Virus genome (UHGV): UHGV-0168749
Source of the DNA: a virus
Strand: one strand, 5' to 3'
DNA: 12,524 bases
Shown here: positions 32-12,524 of the stretch, in pieces
Layout of the letters: each line of letters starts with the position of its first letter
How positions within the stretch are numbered: the first letter of the stretch is position 1
Made by a program: the position numbers and the translations under genes
The notes under the pieces: model-generated
What the model was told of the DNA's origin: nothing
Seen by the model: only the letters and a program-made list of their open reading frames with translations
The model's database searches: none

Positions 32-3000
32 TCAGAACAGTATGCAACGTACGATAACAAAGGCGGTTATACGTACAACACTACAAAACGCCGTTTTGCC
101 GTTACGTACAAAACCACGACGTTAAATGACTACTCCCTGTCGATGAAATACCGTATTCCTGGTATTTTCCCGAACATGGGAAGCATTAACCCAAATGAAC
201 AAATCGATTGGATGTTGTGCTACGCGAATGGCGGTGCAAGTATCCTTCGTCTTCAATTAAAGCAGCGTAAAATCTCTTTGCGCCTGACCGTAGCGTTAGG
301 AAGCGGCTCAACCGATTACGACTATACGCTAATCAACGGACTGACCGACAGCGAATTGAAAGGTGAGTTAACGTTTAGTGTTGTTCGTCAGCCTGGTAAC
401 GGTGTGTATGTTATCGAGGTGACGACTAACAAACAGACGATGGACTACACGTTCAACGTTGATAACCCACCATCCGAATTCTCAGCAGGTTATAGCAAAA
501 CAGATGTTGCGAAATGGTTGAAATATAAAACCAACGTTAATCTAAACTGGTGGGCGGCTGAAAACGATTATGCACAATTCCTTGCGTTACCTGGTGCGCC
601 AGACGCCGACGTAAGCAATGACGTTTATCAGCTGATTGTCAAATACCATCAGTTGGTGGAACAGCTTTACCGCAACGCACCAGCTCACGAGCACGTTACC
701 CGTAAAGATAACCCACACGTCGATACGTGGGGACCGATTCGTGCGTTAGAGTTAAACGGTATCGCGTCAGATGCTGCTTTGGCTTACGGGAAAACGAAAC
801 AACAGTTAACGGATTACGTTAACAGTAAATACCCGACGCAGGCAACACTGACAGCGCAGAATAAACTGCTACGCACCGCAGCTAACAAAACGGTTGACGG
901 AACTATCAGAACACTGCCAGGCTTTACGTCCTTTACGACGGAAGTTGATCCGGTGTCGATGTCTAAGTACGTGAACCCTTATTTTAGCGAAAGCTATGTT
1001 AGCAATGGTTACACGTATCATGGCGCACTTCGTTATACGGGAACGAAGAATGGATTTGGTACTTATTTTAATGGAGTACCTGCCAACCTGCAAGATATTG
1101 ACTTCATTGTCACCGGACGTAAAACAGCGTCAGGTAATGAAGCAGTCGGTATGGTTGGTTTACGCTTCTATGAAAATCCTGGTAGTAACTCTGGCAAATT
1201 CATTCAACTTACCGGTGAAGTTCTGTCAGGTCGAGTCAGTATCGGTTTACAACTGAACGGTTATGCTAATCCGCAGCCGGAAGTCCAATATGTTTCTCAA
1301 ATCGCCGATCCTGCAATACCTGACGATGATTTTACGTTACGTTTCCAATTAAAACGTACGGGGAACGTATTTGATATCGTTGTTACCGTGAATGGTAAGA
1401 CGTACAGCGCTCGTGTCAACTTCGTTAACATGGATGCTGCGCTAGAAGCGTTAGAGAACCAACATCACTTTAAAACGTTGATTAACAACGTTGCTGATAG
1501 TGTCAGCATTATCTCGCAAAACAAAGGTAACACGGTTACCATTAAGAAAGCGCCGGATGTTGTTGACGAGACCCGTTTAGGTGCTCAGTTTGCCGTTGAC
1601 CCGAAATCCATTAAGTTTATTGGCCAAGGTTCAACCGAAGTTAATGCAGGGAATAACCCCGTAACTTTCCAGGCAGGGACTAATCAGCTGGTATTGTACG
1701 CTGACGATCGTGGCTTGCAGTGGCGTGGTAAGAAACTTTTAGACCCCACCACAGTAGGGCCTTACCTACCAGGTAATACCGCGGGTGGAACAGGATTATT
1801 CTACGCAAACTCGACAGCAACGGTAACCATTACAGGTAACGGAATAAAAGCGTCACCGTTTGTGGCAACGTTTGTCCTCCCTACCGCAACGGATACGACG
1901 TCCTTAGCCGGATGGCAGTTAACCGATGAGTTCGGTACTGCGGAAAATCTGGCAGCGACGCCTGCGTTGATTACAAAACTCGATGCTGAGTTTACGGGTA
2001 AATTGGTCGCGGTAAAATCGTACATTAACGACATGCCGTTAACCAGCTCTATTACCATCGACAAAATCACCTTTAACCTAGGTAACGTTGCAAACACACC
2101 TGACGTCGATTTACCTATTTCTGTTGCACAACAAACAGAGTTGGATAAATATTCACCGAAGGTTCACCGCCACCCGTCAACAGCGTTTGGAGTGGAAAAC
2201 GCAACAACGGATAAACGCGGGTTAATTAAATTCGGATTAGCCGTCGATGATGCAACGCTGGCTTTAGACGCTAGTGTGGTGATGGATCAGACAGCTCGAA
2301 TTGAGAAGCTGGAAGCAACAGTAGGTAACGTAGATTCGGGTGCCCGAATTGACATCATCCGTTACGGTGAAACTGGGAACGACTTAATCGAAGTTACGGT
2401 AAAAGACAAGATACTGGTTACGTTACCCGCCACAACGTATTTCATTGGTGGGGAAACGTATCAAGTGCCGTTAATGACAGTAAACACTGCTGAGCGCTTT
2501 CCAAAACTGAATACGGAAATTGTTGCTGGGGTGTTTGTTGATATTGTCGATAACCGGGCGACTTATGTTATTCACGATAGTTACAGTCAAGCCGAAACGG
2601 ATACCATGACCCGTGTGGGGATGATTGGCGTCAACGATATCTCAGAAGTGTACTTAACCGAGTTGCGTAACGTGACCCGTTTAGGTGATTTCCGGGAATT
2701 GTCAGAACATATTGCTAACGACAATGCGCATATTCAGAGAAGTGCGCCACGTGCAGCTCTAGGTTTGCGCAATTTAACAGTGGGTGCGCCCTGCTGGGCT
2801 TCAGGCTTACAAGCAGTAACACGTGGTGAGGCTGATTGGCGATTTGCGATGGGGAATACGTATAAAGCACTCGACGGCGTAAAATACGATTCCTTAGCTT
2901 CGAAGTGGATATTTGATCCAAAGGGAGTTAGTGATAATGTTCATGGATTTATTCACAATCTTTTCCCGCTGTTCTCGAACGCAGGTGTTCGTGTAACTTG

Positions 3001-3787
3001 GGAAACGGAGAGTAACGCAAAAACGGGCACAGTGCTTGAAACGATTTTAGGTTGTTGGCGGAATAATGCCAATGAGTTTGTTCGCTTGTCTCTTTTAGTG
3101 ACAAGGGGCTACCGCTTAACTGACAGTAAGGGCGAATATTGTTACGCAGGTTTCGGGTTAAACTTCGCTAATGGGAAATCGGTTGTTCTTGGTTTTACAC
3201 CAACGAAGCGTGTTACACCTGCCCCTTGGAGTACATTACAACCCGATATCACATTTACCCACAGACGCGGCGCGAACAACGATGTGACGTTTAATGCGAC
3301 GTTAACACTAGCAGGAACGGTTTATACCATCGTTGTGTATTTGTCAGATGTAGATAAATACGTAAGCTGCACCGCAGCGGGCGGAACAACTCAGAAAATT
3401 TCGTTAACTGATCGTCTAGGTGAGTTAGATATTTCACCCATTGTTAACGATCCTTATACCCCTATCTATTACGGTTTAGGGGGACTTTATGACGACGAGG
3501 TACGCGCCAACCTCCGTACCACTGCTGATAGCATAACAGCAAATAAATCGTACGGAACGCTATTGGATTATATCGCTAACTATTCTGCATTAAACCGCGC
3601 ACGCCTCATTGAGACAGCTGGCCCAAGCTCAGATCCTGAGACGCTAAACGCGCTGGTAGCAAAAGAGTTTGATGATAATTTAGCCGATTATAACGCGTTA
3701 CCGATCCCTCCTTATCTGAACAAGGAGCGTGTCATGTCGTTCTTGGGTGAAAACAATAAACTCAACGCGGTGATTATTCGCGATTAA
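32..3787 (+). CDS. Large phage tail-fibre-like structural protein, probably 5'-partial (the ORF track starts it at the internal Met at 143)
   Basis: The reading frame is open from the first native base after the adapter (the only upstream in-frame stop, TAA at 20-22, lies inside the adapter). No Shine-Dalgarno precedes the ATG at 143 (upstream is ctactccctgtcg). Stop TAA at 3785-3787. Composition is T/N/G/V/Y-rich and it contains the box DLPISVAQQTELDKYSPKVHRHP...ATTDKRGLIKFG (nt ~2102-2238) resembling the conserved tail-fibre K-P-x-S...H-x-H motif. The product call is by motif recall, not a search. Confidence 0.7.
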   Translation, partial: SEQYATYDNKGGYTYNTTKRRFAVTYKTTTLNDYSLSMKYRIPGIFPNMGSINPNEQIDWMLCYANGGASILRLQLKQRKISLRLTVALGSGSTDYDYTLINGLTDSELKGELTFSVVRQPGNGVYVIEVTTNKQTMDYTFNVDNPPSEFSAGYSKTDVAKWLKYKTNVNLNWWAAENDYAQFLALPGAPDADVSNDVYQLIVKYHQLVEQLYRNAPAHEHVTRKDNPHVDTWGPIRALELNGIASDAALAYGKTKQQLTDYVNSKYPTQATLTAQNKLLRTAANKTVDGTIRTLPGFTSFTTEVDPVSMSKYVNPYFSESYVSNGYTYHGALRYTGTKNGFGTYFNGVPANLQDIDFIVTGRKTASGNEAVGMVGLRFYENPGSNSGKFIQLTGEVLSGRVSIGLQLNGYANPQPEVQYVSQIADPAIPDDDFTLRFQLKRTGNVFDIVVTVNGKTYSARVNFVNMDAALEALENQHHFKTLINNVADSVSIISQNKGNTVTIKKAPDVVDETRLGAQFAVDPKSIKFIGQGSTEVNAGNNPVTFQAGTNQLVLYADDRGLQWRGKKLLDPTTVGPYLPGNTAGGTGLFYANSTATVTITGNGIKASPFVATFVLPTATDTTSLAGWQLTDEFGTAENLAATPALITKLDAEFTGKLVAVKSYINDMPLTSSITIDKITFNLGNVANTPDVDLPISVAQQTELDKYSPKVHRHPSTAFGVENATTDKRGLIKFGLAVDDATLALDASVVMDQTARIEKLEATVGNVDSGARIDIIRYGETGNDLIEVTVKDKILVTLPATTYFIGGETYQVPLMTVNTAERFPKLNTEIVAGVFVDIVDNRATYVIHDSYSQAETDTMTRVGMIGVNDISEVYLTELRNVTRLGDFRELSEHIANDNAHIQRSAPRAALGLRNLTVGAPCWASGLQAVTRGEADWRFAMGNTYKALDGVKYDSLASKWIFDPKGVSDNVHGFIHNLFPLFSNAGVRVTWETESNAKTGTVLETILGCWRNNANEFVRLSLLVTRGYRLTDSKGEYCYAGFGLNFANGKSVVLGFTPTKRVTPAPWSTLQPDITFTHRRGANNDVTFNATLTLAGTVYTIVVYLSDVDKYVSCTAAGGTTQKISLTDRLGELDISPIVNDPYTPIYYGLGGLYDDEVRANLRTTADSITANKSYGTLLDYIANYSALNRARLIETAGPSSDPETLNALVAKEFDDNLADYNALPIPPYLNKERVMSFLGENNKLNAVIIRD

Positions 3788-3797: not shown

Positions 3798-6700
3798 TTG
3801 ATGAAAGCGTATCCTTACGATCCTCGGGGGACGAAAGCCGAGAATCACTTCTTAGAGGAGCGTATCATCGGGTCAGAAAACAACAACGATCGGGTGGTGA
3901 TTTTGGATCATCGCCCGTTCTTTGAAAATCTGGTCGTTAAGCAGCCGGGTTCAACTACCCCACTGAGCCGTGGGGTAGATTACGAACTGCAATATCAGCT
4001 GACGGAACTGGATGACTCGGTAGCAGCCAACGTGTATTGTGGGGTACACCTTATCAACCCATCCATCAAAGGTTTAGTTACTTTTGAAGGACAAATGCTC
4101 GGTGGAACGTTTTACGATCCGTTTGTAGAAATTCTGGATGAGCTTGTAAAACATCTCAATAACCCGACTAGTGCGGATTGGTTGTTATTAGAAGGTCGTC
4201 CGTCGCTTTATCCAGCAACACCTGCTGCAACGTCTTGGGCAGATTTGCTGAATAAAAAATATCTTGCGTCTGCGGTTCATGATATCGAATTAAAAACCGA
4301 TGATGCAAACCAACTGATTAAAGATAAACTGGCCGAGGTTAAAGCACTCGTTGTTGCTCTGGGTAAAGAAATTCAAGCATTTAATTACCCAGCACATATC
4401 GCGGCAAAGAATCCTCATGAAACAACCGTAGCACAAATCGAAGCTCATCCGGTGAATCTCAAAACGCCGGATACCTTTATGGCTTACGGTTTACGTCTGA
4501 AAGCGTTAACGGAAGAACTAAAAGCATTCCGTTTACCACAATCGGTAGTTGACACCTATATTTCTCATTGGATTTCTGATGAGGTCTATGGGAATTTCAA
4601 CTGTACGGTGTCAGGAAACCGTGCACAATTCAGTTCTAAAAATGGTGAATCTGAAATCATTTTTGCGAACGATGGTTTTACGTTGAAGTCAAACGGTTCA
4701 GTTGTGTTGGCGGTCGGGCACTTGGAAGGAACAGGTGCGGGTCGTTACATACAGTGGCGTGCAGGTAAGAACACGTTGCGTATTGAATCAACAGGCGATG
4801 CCTTAGGGATGAATAAACTCACCTTAAACGGCAACCCGTTGCTTACAACGACTGCACTAATGGAATACCAACAAGACCCTGACGAAGGGACAGGTGGTAA
4901 TGACCCTGATGACACTAAAGTGTATATCGAGGGTCGCAACGGAATTAGCTTTACGGGTAAAGGTTCACGCGCTGACCCTATCGTAGGGGTTATCGACCCT
5001 CAAAAAGCGACTCTGACTGAAAAAGGCGTCGCTAAACTGAAAACCGGTAAAGGAACGGAAACAACGGGCGTTGCAGCAACACCGGGGTCACTGACACCGT
5101 ACTCAACGGACTTGTCCGGGTATGTGCCGAAAACGACGCTGCTAAACGGTAAGGCGATGAACGACGGTTCTCGCCAGATTACCAAAGCAGAGTTAGGATT
5201 GGAACATGCTGACAATACCGCCGATGTTGATAAACCGCTGTCCTCGGCTCTAAGTACGGCAGTTGAAGGACTTGCGGAAAAGAACCACCATCACGAGTGG
5301 TCAGAATTAGGCATTTATAAGGCTTCTCAATCCATTTACGGTATAGGTCGTTATGCGACTAACCAAAATGGCTTAGTCGAGGGACGGGCTGTAGTGCCTA
5401 ATATTCTCAAAGAACTTTCTGCAAGGCTTGAAGTTGTTGCCGCAGCGATTGCAAATGCGAAAGAAGGTACGGTAACAGATTTTGCTGCGGTACAAGGTGC
5501 GCAGTGGCGGTTTAATAGTCAAGGTACTGCTTTAACCGTACAGGATCTGAAAGTCTTTTATTTGTTTGATGGTAACAAAGACGAAGCTACCCTGACCGGT
5601 GCAATTGATCTTCAGACAACGCCAATGTTCAACTGGTTTTCGCCAAATAACCAGCTTGAAACTACCTGGCCGGAAGCAAAAGTTAGCAAAGGAACAGGAA
5701 TTACTTGGGACGGTATTGATGAACCACCGTTAATGGGCTATCACTCTGTGCCTGTTGGAAAGACAGCAACACAAATGGGTGATCAGTCTGTAATTACTGT
5801 TCTTGCTAAAGCTCGGGTCAAAGCGTACCAGTCTAAGCTATGGGTTTATGCTGCCGGTGGTGGCCCCGTAACCGTGTACATTAACGGTGTGCAAGTTGCC
5901 TCCGGTGAATCGCCATTATTAACTGTTTACGAAACTTCACCAAACGTCGAGAACTATGTTGTTGCAATAAAAGCGGAATGTAGCGACACGGCAAAATCAG
6001 CTGCGGTGCAGTTTGAGATATATGACGGTGATTACCCTGTATATTTCAGTGGTCCCGAAACACACGTAGAGTTGTTAGCCGATTTCGTCACAACACATGT
6101 TGGGATTCGTCATTATCTTTACGTTAACATGCTCACAGGTTCTCTGTATTCTCGTGCTGAGCCGATCGAATCAAACCAGGTTGATCCTGAGCGCGGTTTT
6201 ATCGGATACGTAGATGTTTACGCAGGCGAAAATTACGCGAATAAGACGGTAACTTTCGACACCACTTTCGACTTTGGTACAAGTGCAGAAATTGGCAACC
6301 ATGTGACCACGCGAAACGCCCACGGGTTAAAAGTGGTCGACTGGTCGCTGACAGATAACCCCAGATTACCGTTATTGAACCGCGCTATTCCCGAACCACG
6401 TGCGTTGGTTTATCGTAAGATGCTAACGGCGGGAAGTGGCGGGACTGCTGTAAGCTTGAGTCGCGGTTTGCTTACTTATTCGCATGGGCTAAATGTTAAA
6501 ACTGCTTTACAGCTAATTTTCTCGACCGAAGGTGCAACGCCGTATTGTTGGTTTACACCATTCAACCCTAAAGAAAATAGTGCCCCCACATTCGAAGGGT
6601 CGTTTGTTTTTGATGTTGATGATGTTGGCGGGACAAAAGCACTCACAGCAGCTCCAGATCTTATACTCTGTGCTAGTTCACAAGGTAGTTCTGTAGGACG

Positions 6701-7988
6701 TCGATACGTTCGTTTTAATCTTACGGATAAGACCTGCAAAGTGGGTGTTGGTACGGTGCGTACTAATGAGACGTGGTACAAAACGTTTGAAACAAACGAT
6801 GGGGTGATGTTGATGGAAACAGCAAATGAGACCGCTGTTTCTGCAACTACCAAAGACGTGTTATTTAATGGCGATGAAACTAATCCAGCAATTCTTGACC
6901 TTTTAGGTTGGGGTGTAAGCAAGGATAAGATTTCTCCTGTTCACGCCCCAAGGGGAATGATACGTTACCGTTATAATGTTCAAACTCGTGTCTTACGATT
7001 AGCACTTTCTTTCTCGCAGTTTAACACAACAGCGGTTAAACAACGCCAAGTAGAGTTCCAACTTCCGTTTGATTTGGTAGATTATTTTGCTGGCGATGGC
7101 GTTGGGCTGGCGTTTAGTGAACTCAGCGAGAAGTGTCGTTTGACGATTAGCCATGGTTTAATAGACCCGGTTACATCTAATATTGACATTGATAAGTATC
7201 ATTACTTGCGTGGCTTGTTTGAATCGTACGTAGATAGTTCTATCGGTCAGCTTTCGGATGCTCGTGATGCCGATTATGCCCAGACCGCAATAGACCCCGC
7301 ATCGTACGAGATTAAATCTGAGTTCCGTTTTACCGAAGCAATAGGTTTACCTCTGGGACAAGGTGTTGCTTCTTTGTCGCATGAAGGTCAACTACCTGCG
7401 CAGTTCTACGATCGTAAGTTAGCTCGCGGTGCTTTGGTTTCTCAGAACTCTACGTGGAATAACGCGTGGAGTACCACGTCGCCTGCATCAGATAAACATC
7501 GTGGAAATTTGATCTTGCGATTCGCACAGGGCGTTAGTAAAGCACATTATCGCATCGCGCGTGTGTCGGGAACGATTAAAAGCAACTGGCCAGGGAAAGT
7601 GATTATCGGTGATGCACAGAAAGATGCTTTCTTATCTGCAACTGACATCGTCGAATTTGCTTTGTCGACATCTTCTGATGTGGGTAAAGCAATAAGCTTA
7701 ACTCCCGTGGATCTACGGGCAGGCCAAGACCTTTATATCGTCCTTGAGTTGCCGGGCGACAACCCAGAGGGGTATGAGTTGAACTTCAGCTGCAATTTAG
7801 AAATCTTTGATGAAACCAATACTCGTCAAGATCAACTGAACGTGCAAAGTTTTGAAGTTCGTTCCGGCGATGAACAAGTGATGATAACAAAGCGTAATCC
7901 GTACCATATCACGAGCAAAGCGTGGAAATGGATTTTAGCTGTACTGAAACGTGAACTTAACGGTAAACAGTTAGGGGATCGCACTTAG
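3798..7988 (+). CDS. Large phage tail-fibre-like protein (~1396 aa) with a canonical fibre repeat and a His-triplet box; start may be the ATG at 3801 rather than TTG at 3798
   Basis: Uninterrupted ORF with a strong RBS and TAG stop at 7986-7988. It contains QKATLTEKGVAKLKTGKGTETTGVAATPGSL (nt ~5001-5090), closely matching the tail-fibre repeat type A-T-x-x-x-K-G-V-x-x-L...A-A-T-P known from lambda Stf and T4 gp12/gp34, followed by LGLEHADNTADVDKPLSSALSTAVEGLAEKNHHHEW (nt ~5196-5300). The C-terminal ~700 aa look like a different, globular, Cys-containing module. Confidence 0.8.
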   Translation: MMKAYPYDPRGTKAENHFLEERIIGSENNNDRVVILDHRPFFENLVVKQPGSTTPLSRGVDYELQYQLTELDDSVAANVYCGVHLINPSIKGLVTFEGQMLGGTFYDPFVEILDELVKHLNNPTSADWLLLEGRPSLYPATPAATSWADLLNKKYLASAVHDIELKTDDANQLIKDKLAEVKALVVALGKEIQAFNYPAHIAAKNPHETTVAQIEAHPVNLKTPDTFMAYGLRLKALTEELKAFRLPQSVVDTYISHWISDEVYGNFNCTVSGNRAQFSSKNGESEIIFANDGFTLKSNGSVVLAVGHLEGTGAGRYIQWRAGKNTLRIESTGDALGMNKLTLNGNPLLTTTALMEYQQDPDEGTGGNDPDDTKVYIEGRNGISFTGKGSRADPIVGVIDPQKATLTEKGVAKLKTGKGTETTGVAATPGSLTPYSTDLSGYVPKTTLLNGKAMNDGSRQITKAELGLEHADNTADVDKPLSSALSTAVEGLAEKNHHHEWSELGIYKASQSIYGIGRYATNQNGLVEGRAVVPNILKELSARLEVVAAAIANAKEGTVTDFAAVQGAQWRFNSQGTALTVQDLKVFYLFDGNKDEATLTGAIDLQTTPMFNWFSPNNQLETTWPEAKVSKGTGITWDGIDEPPLMGYHSVPVGKTATQMGDQSVITVLAKARVKAYQSKLWVYAAGGGPVTVYINGVQVASGESPLLTVYETSPNVENYVVAIKAECSDTAKSAAVQFEIYDGDYPVYFSGPETHVELLADFVTTHVGIRHYLYVNMLTGSLYSRAEPIESNQVDPERGFIGYVDVYAGENYANKTVTFDTTFDFGTSAEIGNHVTTRNAHGLKVVDWSLTDNPRLPLLNRAIPEPRALVYRKMLTAGSGGTAVSLSRGLLTYSHGLNVKTALQLIFSTEGATPYCWFTPFNPKENSAPTFEGSFVFDVDDVGGTKALTAAPDLILCASSQGSSVGRRYVRFNLTDKTCKVGVGTVRTNETWYKTFETNDGVMLMETANETAVSATTKDVLFNGDETNPAILDLLGWGVSKDKISPVHAPRGMIRYRYNVQTRVLRLALSFSQFNTTAVKQRQVEFQLPFDLVDYFAGDGVGLAFSELSEKCRLTISHGLIDPVTSNIDIDKYHYLRGLFESYVDSSIGQLSDARDADYAQTAIDPASYEIKSEFRFTEAIGLPLGQGVASLSHEGQLPAQFYDRKLARGALVSQNSTWNNAWSTTSPASDKHRGNLILRFAQGVSKAHYRIARVSGTIKSNWPGKVIIGDAQKDAFLSATDIVEFALSTSSDVGKAISLTPVDLRAGQDLYIVLELPGDNPEGYELNFSCNLEIFDETNTRQDQLNVQSFEVRSGDEQVMITKRNPYHITSKAWKWILAVLKRELNGKQLGDRT

Positions 7989-8083: not shown

Positions 8084-11000
8084 ATGCCGAGAGAAGACGC
8101 GGCGCTGTTTAACGGTACGTTAAATACGTCAACGTACCCTAACCGATTTAACGTGGTCATCCCGCCGGAAGGCCCCTTTTATCGTATCGGATTAAAGCTC
8201 ACTGTTGCTGACGAGTCCGCCGCCGGTGGCCGTCGTACCTTAATAGAAGGTCTGGACTACTATTTAGGTTATTACTTTAAAGAGCTCGCTGAGGCAGAAC
8301 AAGACCAAATTTACGGCGGGTTCATGTTACTGACTGCCACTGAGGTGGAATACGAAATTCTGGGTGTAGCGCGCCAGTACCGTATCCCACAATCGGAAAT
8401 TGGCAAGTATCTAGTTCGTACCGATTTAAAAGATCCGCGTAACGTGGATTGGTCCGAATTAATGGCGTATGCTCCTGTCATACAGCCTATTGACCCGCCT
8501 GCTAACTTAGAAGAAGCCCTACTCAGGGACGAAGTAGTAAAAGCATTAGATGATATTCGTAAAAAGATTATCAAACGTTCCACTGAACTGGATGCTGCTT
8601 TTAGCGAAGTTACGAATCTGATTTACGAAAACGGTAAGAAGGTTTTTGACGAAGAGCTTTATCAGCACCATTTGAACCCTAATGTTCACAACTACACGAC
8701 TGAAGACATTGGTGCACTGCCTGTGTTGGGGCGTGCCGTAGATGCGACAAAAGCTTTCAACAGAACGTTAGATGAACTCGCAACGTTGATGGGTTCTGCG
8801 GGAATTGAGCAGTCGGACGTAGACCAGTTGATGGGCCGTACACTCGGCACGGTTTATGGTCGTTGGCGTGCTTCAAACGGTAAAGAACTGGCGTTCAAAA
8901 CCGCAGGCGGTCATGTAATCAGTATCCGAAATGATAAGTGGTTGATTACGTCACCACAACCATTAGTGATTAAAGCTGACCAGGACAACAATGAATCAGG
9001 CTTAGCCGTTGAGTTCAGCGCTGGGTTGAACACCCTTTGGGTACACTCTGGCTCCGAGCAAGATGTTTTAGCGCCAGTGTATAACTCCGTGTATCTGGTT
9101 ACACCAGACATGGTGAACATGTACTTAACATCGGTGACGTTGCTGGAAGCTAATGCGTACTTCTCGTCTTCAGACACAGTGAAAGCGTACGGTACATCGA
9201 AACAATCCAACCCATTGACGTTAAATGCAAATATCCCTACGGCGTCTGAGTCGGTTTACGGATTGTTCTCTATTACGAATATCGCAACATCAGCTGCGTT
9301 GGGTACAGCAATATCCCAAAAAGCCGTTACTGAATTAAAAGACCGGTTAGACTTGTACGTCGATGATGATTACACCATTAACGGTAAAGGATTTGTTAAG
9401 ACCGGTGAGAACATGGTATTGACGTTAACGAAAACGGATTTCGGCATCGATAAAATGGACAATACCAGTCCGGCTAACAAACCAGTAACAAAAGCACTGA
9501 CAAATGTTTTAAAGAACAAAGCATTGTCTAACCACACCCACGTGTTTGGCGATTTGGATAATGTACCGATCGGTAGTGCGACGGTAGACGGCTTATTACA
9601 GTTGTGGGATGCTATAGACACTACTAATGATAAAGCGGTCACTTCGCGTCAAGGGTGGTTATTTGCGAAAGAGATCAAGAAAGTTACTGACAAACTGAAC
9701 ACTATTTTACCGGCTTGGACCGTAGGTGGTGCGAAGTTTGGTAACAAAAACTTTCTACCAATTCCGGCACTTGGTAACTATTCAGGCTTTACAAAGAACC
9801 AGTCTTACCAAAAAGGGGTTGTTGGTTATCAGCAAGGGAAGGTCTACTCGCTACGTAATGCTTCTAATGGCGTGCCGGGTACAGAAGCTATTTATTACGG
9901 TTATGCGGATATCAACTCGTCAAATGCGTTTGAAAATCCACAACAGACCTCGGTGAAATACCATCCTGTTGGACTGAGTAAGTATCCTGGTGTAACTTTA
10001 AAAGCGATTTTGATTGGTGGTCAGGAAGCGATCATTTGCCTGGGCTCCGACAATAACCGGTATTTGGTGCTGTTTAACGGTTCGATGGACCACGCCAAAC
10101 ACACCGTGGTTTGTCGTGTGACGATGCCTGTCTATCGTAACGGTAACCCTAGCGGAACCGTTGAACAAACTTGGAATCCGTGGCCAGAAGCCGACGATGT
10201 TGTGCTGGTTGATGATTACGTCTATCTTCTCCGTTCTACGGTGAATAACTCTGCTTATGCAGTGGCGGCTTGGCGTTTGCGTAAAGCTGATTTGTATACC
10301 AGCACCACGTTAGAATTTGAACGCGTAACATTAACAGGCGAAATGGGTCAATACGGAGATAACCTCTGTTTACGAATCGGTCAAAAAACTGAGGAGTCTC
10401 AGTCTGGGCAGTTCTTTACGTATTTTACACCAGAAGCACGCGCTAAATGGACTAACGGACATAACTTTGTTCACGGGCCGGAATGCAACCATGCTTGCGC
10501 GGTGCGTGACAGCGTGATCCGCGTGAACCATATGCCCACGGTATGGTTTGCGGCGGCTGATGGCTCACAAATTAACTTTCGTCAATGGGCAACAAGTTTT
10601 ACGATCGATACGTTGACGGGCAAAGTTACGTTAGAAGGTGCCGAACGCTTCCCCATCAAGGCTGATGCTACTACACTCTCGTTCGCGGACGGTTCAACTG
10701 TAGAAACTAGTCGCAAGTGGGGTGGTGGTCAGGCAAACAATCGTTGTTTTGCAACGTTTGCAAAACCTAACGGTACGGGAATGATGCTTTCCTGCTGGCA
10801 AGTTAACGACGCAGACCAAATGCCGAACGTTTCTATTAAAGGAACGCAAGGCAAAGAGCTTTTCGATTATCTGCGTTACGATAACCCGAACAATACTTCA
10901 GGTGAAGGGACTTTTACATGGGATAAAGGACGCGGTTCTATTTATACCATCGGTCTTTCTCACCCTGTCGGTATTGGAGGCTCGAACAAAGTCTGGTTGT

Positions 11001-12475
11001 CTAATCCACGTAACCGTTACACAATCGAAGTTGAGGTTGACCCGAACACGCCGTACAATGTACCTGGTTACAGCGGATACGGTCCAAATAACAACCGTCG
11101 CGAGGTTGATCCTACACTTTACGAGCAGTTGAGCTGTATGGCTGCGTGTATGACGCCAGAGGAGCGCCACGGCCAACTTAACGGTTGGTATCTAACAAAA
11201 GCAGAGACTTTCCCATACCGGAATATCTACGGTAATTTTGCGTTGTCTTCAGAACGCTTGACGTTAGAAGAAGCTGATCGCCAGAAGATGATTCGAATGA
11301 TTGTCGATGGTGCGCCGTCAGGCGAAGCTAATGGCTATGCGAATGAACGTATTAGCGCAGCACACCAAACAGGCAATGCGTTATTTGCTCTTTGGATGTT
11401 GGGTATTAACACCGTGTGCGAGTTTGACTTATTACAAGTTTCGTGCATGAAAACCTTAGATAATGGGCGTCGTATTCTCGATATCTATTACTTCATGGTG
11501 AGCCCATCTAAAGAGAATGGTTATCTACGTTTTAACTCCGCAACCTTTAAGCTGGTCGACTGGTTCTTAGATAAGGACTACGGTTTAAGTTATCAGTCCT
11601 TGAATGAAGAAGCGGGTAATAAAACACGACGTGTGGGTCAGCCTATCTTTGCTTCTGCGGATGGTGTTAACTTCGGTATTTGGTTACCGTATACGTTGAC
11701 GATTCGGAATATCGGTGATTTGAACGCATTAGGCTACGCCGCGAAATATACTTACGACCCTGGGTCGGGTTGGACTCGTGTTCCTGGTAAGTCTCAGTTG
11801 CGTCAGATGGCTCCTGCCCATAACCCAGAATCCGGGTGTTACATGGGCGCGGGCAGTTGGGATAAGATGGCATTGATTTATTCCAAGGCTGACCGTGTAT
11901 TCTGCTCGGGTAATGCGTACACTGCCGCAGAGTTTGTTAACGACACAACATTCTCAACAGGCGGTCAAGCGGTCATTATTTCCGGTGTGGAAACGGCGGA
12001 AGGTTGGATTCTGTATTTAACGGAAGAAGTTAAATTGGATTTTGGTAGCAGTAGTTATACGCTTCCAACGTGGTCGGTAGATTTAAGTAATCAATTTCCA
12101 TCTAACCACGCCAATCAAACCTTCTACGTCCACGGCGAAGTTGTAGGCTCAACTGCACAGTATCAGATAGGTCTGGAGCAGCTTCCTGATAATGCGACTC
12201 GGCTGTTCGTTGGAACAGTCACAACGGACAGCAAACGTATCGTTGATATCAATATCGATAAGGTGAAACGTCTTGGTCGTGTTCGTGAACTGGAAGAACA
12301 TGCCGCTGTGGTTGATCAACACGACGTAGCGGCGGCGTTTGATCGAAAAACAGGACCACTACAGACGCTGGTTAACCAACCGTTGAAAGCTCCTGCGGCA
12401 TCTACGGTAAAAGGTTCTGGTTATGTTGATGCACAGAAGTGGAATTCACTTTCTGCGCTGGCATATAAGCCAGGT
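8084..12475 (+). CDS. Large phage tail-fibre-like protein, 3'-partial (at least 1464 native residues; reading frame runs into the adapter)
   Basis: ORF with a good RBS. It contains the box MDNTSPANKPVTKALTNVLKNKALSNHTHVFGD followed by GSATVDGLLQLWDAIDTTNDKAVTSRQGW (nt ~9455-9675), matching the tail-fibre motifs D-N-T-S-x-x-x-K-P-V-S/T...H-x-H and A-S/T-x-x-x-G-x-x-Q-L...A-A/V-T. No stop occurs before the adapter at 12476; the last ~16 residues of the 6-frame track translation (LSLIHISEPTRP...) are adapter-encoded. The C-terminal half is unusually Cys-rich. Confidence 0.8.
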
Positions 12476-12524
12476 CTGTCTCTTATACACATCTCCGAGC
12501 CCACGAGACCCTAAGACATCTCGT
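12476..12524. other. Illumina Nextera read-2 adapter (reverse complement) plus 8-nt index and start of the P7-side sequence, non-biological
   Basis: 12476-12509 read CTGTCTCTTATACACATCTCCGAGCCCACGAGAC (reverse complement of the Nextera read-2 adapter), followed by the 8-nt index CCTAAGAC and ATCTCGT, the start of the sequence that follows the index in Nextera libraries. Confidence 0.9.

Follow-up and report, generated by a model that had tools for sequence, protein, structure and literature searches.

Phage fibres are trimers. Octahedral iron sites made of six His residues have been described at His-x-His (HxH) motifs in gp37 of T4, gpV of P2 and the spikes of phi92 and T4 (PMC11705849; PMC12609058). 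In the cited solved fibres and spikes with a conserved axial His pair, six imidazoles hold a Fe or Zn ion (PMC11705849; PMC12609058; PMC4901313), and the receptor-binding protein (RBP) of phi11 carries a His-X7-His site where a coiled coil ends and bundles join (PMC4901313). For the jumbo phage phiKZ, a 2026 cryo-electron microscopy (cryo-EM) atlas assigned gp131-like N-terminal domains to the baseplate sites where the fibres attach, with the shafts unresolved, and described the fibre bases as hetero-hexamers of gp131-like N-termini from several paralogues (PMC13250141). In SPN3US, the proteins gp168, gp169 and gp170 were detected in the virion by mass spectrometry, are missing in a tailless mutant and are considered baseplate or tail-fibre candidates; they were published as “Paralog family C,” similar to phiKZ gp131 (PMC5694885). 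Here, we analyze a 12,524-nucleotide stretch of the UHGV virus genome UHGV-0168749 (12.5 kb; hereafter the window). It consists of three long open reading frames (ORFs), all on the plus strand, whose products share a single box of about 90 residues with an invariant HxH motif that probably acts as a metal staple on the axis of a fibre trimer.

Sequence similarity and gene order identify the window as the cluster of tail-fibre genes from a jumbo phage of Salmonella that is SPN3US-like and related to Seoulvirus. Gene order and orthology of gp168, gp169 and gp170 of SPN3US are the same as those of ORF3, ORF2 and ORF1, respectively:

143..3787, plus strand: ORF1, 1214 residues, orthologue of SPN3US gp170 (ACQ60_gp096) by phrog_7557 (E = 0) and synteny
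3798..7988, plus strand: ORF2, 1396 residues, orthologue of SPN3US gp169, phrog_8078, with a phiKZ gp131-like N-terminal domain
8084..12475, plus strand: ORF3, orthologue of SPN3US gp168, phrog_7449, cut at about residue 1464 by the contig end and an adapter

The publications on SPN3US and phiKZ gp131 mention neither the box nor the His pairs. In the window, the full boxes and their HxH motifs are located as follows:

2039..2311, plus strand: full box of ORF1 (residues 633-723), made of a fibre core repeat, a short helix, HxH and an A(S/T)xxxxG repeat of possible gp12 type
5160..5429, plus strand: full box of ORF2 (residues 455-544)
9407..9682, plus strand: full box of ORF3 (residues 442-533)
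2165..2173, plus strand: H675-R-H677 of ORF1, both His invariant (11/11 orthologues)
5286..5294, plus strand: H497-H-H499 of ORF2, outer His invariant, middle His in 6/11 orthologues
9533..9541, plus strand: H484-T-H486 of ORF3, both His invariant

A previous interpretation of the window from its letters alone (the sequence-only reading) had pointed out three shorter peptides, DVDLPISVAQQTELDKYSPKVHRHPSTAFGVENATTDKRGLIKFG encoded by nucleotides 2102-2238 of ORF1, DNTADVDKPLSSALSTAVEGLAEKNHHHEW by 5211-5300 of ORF2 and DNTSPANKPVTKALTNVLKNKALSNHTH by 9458-9541 of ORF3, and translations of the window DNA agree exactly with all three. The box is longer than described there and begins about 17 residues upstream of the DNT sequence with (L/I)(T/D)Kxx(F/L)G(L/I). 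Its first part is one copy of a fibre repeat, (V/I)TKxxVGLxxVDNTxDxxKPxS, which is followed by a short helix of about ten residues (SxAxQxALxxK) and by HxH exactly 14 residues past KPxS. The third part, A(S/T)xxxxG(L/I/V), bears a weak likeness to the repeats of T4 gp12. The proposed consensus holds as an alignment common to all three proteins, except in ORF3, where P takes the place of the leading D of D-x-(D/N). The gap between HxH and the A(S/T)xxxxG segment, given as 10-25 residues, has to be corrected to 8-10. The loop of the ORF3 box is two residues shorter, and the ORF2 box contains G-I-G.

When used as a profile, the three boxes detect a single copy per window ORF and likewise one per paralogue in 13 related jumbo-phage loci, recovering all 39 orthologous copies. 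In composition-adjusted BLASTP comparisons, ORF1 and ORF2 align with E = 4e-10 over 184 residues around the box, and ORF2 and ORF3 with E = 2e-20 over about 500 N-terminal residues, an alignment that stops five residues past HxH; the boxes of ORF1 and ORF3 align with E = 0.006. Comparison with 2000 composition-preserving shuffles of the 90-residue boxes yielded z = 12.4 for ORF1-ORF2, 5.1 for ORF1-ORF3 and 14.3 for ORF2-ORF3; the number of shuffles that scored as high as the real boxes was 0, 1 and 0, respectively. The resemblance is thus significant after correction for composition. By BLASTP, no segment other than the box is shared by all three ORFs. At the DNA level, the boxes are about 50% identical between ORFs (59-65 of about 125 nucleotides), and on this ground a repeat at the DNA level and a recent conversion between the genes were both rejected. 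Because of this low nucleotide identity, the similarity of the boxes is read as old paralogy. The interpretation of the three genes as paralogues is correct and had already been published for SPN3US. It rests on the homology of the box, the ORF2-ORF3 alignment of about 500 residues and a C-terminal module shared by ORF1 and ORF3, and, judged by sequence, ORF1-3 belong as ancient paralogues to the gp131 fibre family of phiKZ.

An alignment of 42 box copies (14 genomes with three paralogues each) contains only three invariant columns, namely the two His of HxH and the Gly of A(S/T)xxxxG. The anticipated conservation of the His residues in homologues is therefore complete, as both are present in 42/42 copies. 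The Pro of KP is found in 41/42 and the Asn of DNT in 39/42 copies, and the mean column identity is about 40%. The middle residue of HxH can be T, H, K, Q or S, and the residue after the second His can be E, P, V, D or T. The His triplet of ORF2, which had been singled out as unusual, is incidental, as its middle position is occupied by K in the other 5/11 ORF2 orthologues.

Full-length alignments of 11 orthologues per paralogue, which share 17-91% identity with the respective window protein, revealed that nearly all invariant His residues of each paralogue fall into three pairs. Besides the central HxH, these are a proximal pair (site 1) and a distal pair (site 3) of the form H-x6/7-H:

692..718, plus strand: proximal pair of ORF1, HVTRKDNPH, H184/H192, 10/11 each, NPH-type unit
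4395..4418, plus strand: proximal pair of ORF2, HIAAKNPH, H200/H207, 11/11, NPH profile iE = 0.043
8666..8689, plus strand: proximal pair of ORF3, HHLNPNVH, H195/H202, 11/11
2708..2731, plus strand: distal pair of ORF1, HIANDNAH, H856/H863, 11/11
6300..6323, plus strand: distal pair of ORF2, HVTTRNAH, H835/H842, 11/11
12299..12322, plus strand: distal pair of ORF3, HAAVVDQH, H1406/H1413, 11/11

Outside these pairs, ORF3 has one lone invariant His, H673. No other residue type is as often invariant as His, at 27%, 21% and 30% in the ORF1, ORF2 and ORF3 families, compared to 2.6%, 6.1% and 7.0% over all residues. The spacing between the pairs varies between paralogues: site 1 and HxH are separated by 483, 290 and 282 residues, and HxH and site 3 by 179, 336 and 920 residues in ORF1, ORF2 and ORF3, respectively. 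A second module, restricted to ORF1 (2444-2731, residues 768-863) and ORF3 (12041-12322, residues 1320-1413; BLASTP E = 6e-5), is the C-terminal module mentioned above and ends at the distal pair (“RLGxxRELxEHxxxxxxH”).

The proximal pair, H-x5/6-NPH in residue pattern, is the counterpart of the 61-residue NPH units of gp131-like fibres. In these fibres, the unit of about 61 residues (“H-x5-NPH-xVTxAQVGLGNVxN”) sits right after the shared N-terminal domain, in a region that lies outside the solved gp131 fragment (4GBF, residues 374-771). Three to five tandem units of this kind (“H-x5-NPH-xVTxAQVGL”) are present in phiKZ gp131 (L024, 5977-8292), RP12 gp072/073 (L022, 5983-8917) and the Serratia phage Totoro (L023, 3734-7326), in place of the DNTxD-KP...HxH box. 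A profile of the phiKZ, RP12 and Totoro units matched the proximal sites of ORF1 and ORF2 weakly (iE 0.04-0.2) and gave no convincing match to the distal sites; that site 3 may also be an NPH unit is put forward as a suggestion.

The box is one member of a much larger family of repeats. Of 1.84 billion cluster representatives, 14,622 were matched at E ≤ 1e-3 by a profile derived solely from the window boxes, and 4,195 still matched at E ≤ 1e-10, with up to 20 stretches in one protein among the best matches. Tandem arrays with a unit of about 38 residues are found in TPA2 gp46, P0160 and similar proteins. Carriers of the repeat in the phage collection are annotated as minor tail proteins or tail fibres and stem from phages of Arthrobacter, Gordonia, Mycobacterium, Flavobacterium, Brucella, Microcystis, Acinetobacter and others. 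In this wider family, the core reads VGLGNVDNTSDxxKP(V/I)SxAxQxALxxK and is followed by a linker with SPxFTG, NPH, YWRGDKTW or HxH. The spacing of the HxH type is fixed, since HxH begins 14 residues past KPxS in 64/68 copies from unrelated proteins as well as in all three window ORFs.

Part of this repeat is represented in Pfam. The PTR family (PF12789, “Phage tail repeat like”) models the “LxxALxxKxxxxHxH” portion, and the HxH half of the box corresponds, by sequence alignment, to the PTR unit: PTR proteins are in register with the window boxes including HxH, and their KPxS-to-HxH spacing is likewise 14 residues. Eight of 25 aligned box copies match PTR, and several box-carrying actinophage proteins exceed its gathering threshold of 27 bits. 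Examples of proteins found by both models are P0196 (profile E = 8.5e-57, PTR 186.6 bits) and P0160 (profile E = 3.4e-66, PTR 71.6 bits). The window ORFs stay below the PTR threshold, and the ORF2 box alone gave no PTR match at E ≤ 10. The DNTxD-KP core, including that of P0139 and P0193, is covered by no Pfam or NCBIfam model. P0139 consists through most of its length of NPH-DNTSD-KP units of about 48-65 residues, 11 stretches of which are matched by the window-box profile, and was assigned to no family. While the PTR and actinophage minor tail proteins carry tandem arrays of VGLGNVDNTSDxxKP repeats, each window ORF has a single copy of the box. A literature search for the motif string retrieved no paper.

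No structure of the DNTxD-KP/HxH unit was found among PDB sequences, whether the query was a complete ORF (all three were used), a box profile (two) or a multi-repeat protein (two). The sole relevant matches were weak ones between the distal half of the box and gp12-type repeats, which in T4 gp12 are N-terminal: for the segment after HxH, E = 0.0036 (5iv5 gp12), 0.0061 (9f4b gp12) and 0.06 (4mtm AP22 fibre), values that are whole-sequence sums over several weak stretches. The connection to T4-type fibres drawn by the sequence-only reading holds as an analogy in motif type, accompanied by this weak gp12 likeness, but does not extend to the T4 gp37 needle. Homology to that needle or to spike apex domains was rejected, as neither a sequence nor a fold match was found. 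The solved part of phiKZ gp131 is its C-terminal propeller only, and this domain (4GBF) has no sequence match to the window proteins.

A monomer model calculated with AlphaFold2 (AF2) from a 43-row alignment reached a predicted local distance difference test (pLDDT) score of 76-87 over box residues 1-50. It predicts an extended chain with one ten-residue helix (model residues 29-38, S483-L492 of ORF2) and places HxH in the following loop. The window box shares a conserved HxH with the T4 gp37 needle, T4 gp12, P2 gpV and the spikes of phi92 and Mu, but in those proteins the motif lies on interwoven beta-strands, whereas in the window proteins it is predicted to lie in a loop after a helix. The Fe site of the phi11 RBP, Gp45, resembles the arrangement proposed here in that each chain contributes one His pair (His42-X7-His50) that follows a short helical bundle at a junction of fibre segments (PMC4901313). 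The H-x6/7-H pairs of the window proteins are of the same spacing type as this H-x7-H site, whereas the central window site is HxH instead. Gp45 also has a downstream beta-propeller platform, as does phiKZ gp131. In the PDB searches, no sequence or fold match between Gp45 and the box was found.

Taken as a whole, HxH is best explained as a metal staple on the axis of the fibre trimer, and we regard this as reasonably probable. An axial staple is favored because both His residues are invariant, because they are held at a fixed spacing behind a short helix and because the site marks the border between a conserved proximal and a divergent distal part. The idea of a metal site, already raised by the sequence-only reading, is plausible and is strengthened by the invariance of the His residues and the fixed spacing of 14 residues. 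In the proposed arrangement, each paralogue would form a trimeric fibre in which three HxH pairs point to the threefold axis and six imidazoles bind one Fe or Zn ion octahedrally. This ion would lock the register of the chains and add stiffness at the transition from the conserved proximal shaft to the variable distal part of the fibre. Similar staples would be formed by the two H-x6/7-H pairs of each protein, giving three staples per fibre.

Several points weigh against this explanation. We infer separately that the proteins are trimers, that the His residues lie on the axis and that a metal is bound. Homotrimers are not guaranteed, given that the fibre bases of phiKZ are reported to be hetero-hexameric (PMC13250141). 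In the wider family, HxH follows only about 5% of the core copies; SPxFTG, NPH and YWRGDKTW stand in elsewhere, and because these linkers replace HxH, folding of the repeat does not depend on the His pair. Fold comparison of the box model matched no solved structure, so that the HxH geometry has no template, and a single-sequence monomer AF2 model of ORF2 residues 380-600 was unusable (pLDDT 32).

A more far-reaching version of the axial staple, which we hold only tentatively and consider somewhat doubtful, assumes three metal ions per fibre in a fixed order, bound by an NPH-type H-x6/7-H pair, by HxH and by an H-x6-H pair. More broadly, the “VGLGNVDNTSD-KP...HxH” repeats would constitute a large class of metal-clamped fibre repeats with a fold unmatched in the PDB. 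In a bolder variant, the box would be the point at which the three different paralogues align with one another within a heteromeric fibre, following the suggestion made for phiKZ.

The alternative that survives best, although we consider it rather unlikely, is a structural or regulatory role of the His pairs without metal. They might form inter-chain layers held by hydrogen bonds or stacking, or a pH-sensitive switch in which His protonation alters the conformation of the fibre near the cell surface. Invariance and fixed spacing would suit any conserved structural role, and the second-shell residues vary, with no obvious tautomer-fixing partner like that of phi11 (PMC4901313). However, the cited solved spikes and fibres with a conserved axial HxH or His-X7-His bind metal (PMC11705849; PMC12609058; PMC4901313), and His at positions i and i+2, presented three times, is a classic octahedral ligand set.

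Slightly less probable, though compatible with a metal staple, is that the box marks a module boundary, that is, a linker kept for the recombinational swap of distal receptor-binding parts, with the His residues being secondary. The abrupt end of the ORF2-ORF3 homology five residues past HxH would be expected of such a boundary, and the presence of the repeat in tail proteins of very different phages would suit a mobile fibre module. The DNA identity of the boxes of about 50% is nevertheless too low for homologous recombination among them, and a boundary function fails to explain why only two His and one Gly are invariant.

Quite improbable in our view is a role of the box as a hetero-oligomerization segment, in which the paralogues would co-assemble with one chain each or in mixed bundles, as proposed for gp131, gp133, gp134 and gp135 of phiKZ, and the box would be the register point of the different chains. 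The hetero-hexameric fibre bases formed by gp131-like N-termini in phiKZ (PMC13250141), the similar spectral abundance of the three SPN3US proteins (SC/M 1.0-1.4) and the fact that no other segment is present in all three ORFs are in agreement with co-assembly. Against it, the distances between the His pairs differ so strongly between the paralogues that their chains cannot share a register along a common shaft. In addition, ORF1 shows no detectable BLASTP match to the N-terminal region of about 160 residues that contains the gp131-like domain in ORF2 and ORF3, and the repeat is present in thousands of single-gene fibres. Finally, the idea that the resemblance arises by chance or from the Ala/Thr/Ser-rich composition of fibres is refuted: ORF1 versus ORF3 is weak if taken alone, but the ORF1-ORF2 and ORF2-ORF3 similarities are strong and the profile recovers, in register, the 39 orthologous copies and thousands of unrelated fibres.

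The assignment of the locus rests on several further comparisons. Each of the three ORFs matches one PHROG family of “virion structural proteins” (7557, 8078 and 7449) with E = 0. In tblastn searches, ORF2 showed 40-50% identity over 99-100% of its length to 55 phage records, the matched SPN3US-like jumbo phages infecting Salmonella, Erwinia, Cronobacter and Escherichia; weaker, partial matches were obtained for Vibrio phages. The order of the three genes is identical in the Salmonella, Erwinia, Cronobacter and Vibrio loci examined, and the three-gene order followed by a gene for a 400-residue virion protein is kept in SPN3US, phiEaH2, CR5, Kwan and others. Residues 5-139 of ORF2 match the N-terminus of PHIKZ131 (E = 1e-4) and RP12 gp072 (E = 2e-11), and ORF3 aligns with ORF2 from residue 20 in BLASTP, indicating a gp131-like N-terminal domain in both. 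Pfam returned no family at E ≤ 1 for ORF1 or ORF2 and only an unrelated sub-threshold DUF5106 match for ORF3, and no NCBIfam family was recognized in the three proteins.

ORF3 is incomplete in the window. It was matched up to position 1430 of the 1714 positions of the phrog_7449 profile, and its orthologues measure 1677-1900 residues from stop to stop. The natural end is missing, and a false C-terminus, LSLIHISEPTRP, is encoded by non-phage DNA at the contig end (12476-12524):

12476..12509, plus strand: Nextera/Tn5 mosaic-end adapter CTGTCTCTTATACACATCTCCGAGCCCACGAGAC

The ORF finder begins ORF2 at a TTG that is immediately followed by an ATG (MMKAY...; 3798-3803). Translation probably starts at this ATG (3801), because the 98% identical database protein P0001 is, at 1395 residues, one residue shorter. 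In relatives from IMG/VR with about 80% identity (L003-L007), the stop-to-stop frame of the ORF1 homologue is about 190 residues longer upstream of the box, which is found at frame position 864 compared to 677 in the window ORF1 (stop-to-stop frames with unmapped start codons), suggesting that ORF1 is polymorphic in length in its proximal half. The closest relatives of the window proteins, with 98% and about 80% identity, are encoded on contigs of 220-227 kb in isolate assemblies of Salmonella enterica (many serovars) and E. coli; an SPN3US-like jumbo phage seems to travel with sequenced isolates, and an assembly of this kind is the probable source of the window.

Useful by-products of the present analysis are the pattern of three His pairs and the recognition that one of the commonest repeats of phage tail proteins lacks an experimental structure and is covered by Pfam models only in part. 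No part of the virion of phiKZ-like jumbo phages is less well resolved than the fibres, and the 2026 phiKZ atlas left their shafts unmodelled. A single generic repeat and three His pairs offer testable handles for structural work and for genetics in the amber-mutant system of SPN3US. If the His pairs do bind iron or zinc, they would enlarge the catalogue of metal-stapled fibres, which matters to the engineering of fibres and to estimates of phage-bound trace metal.

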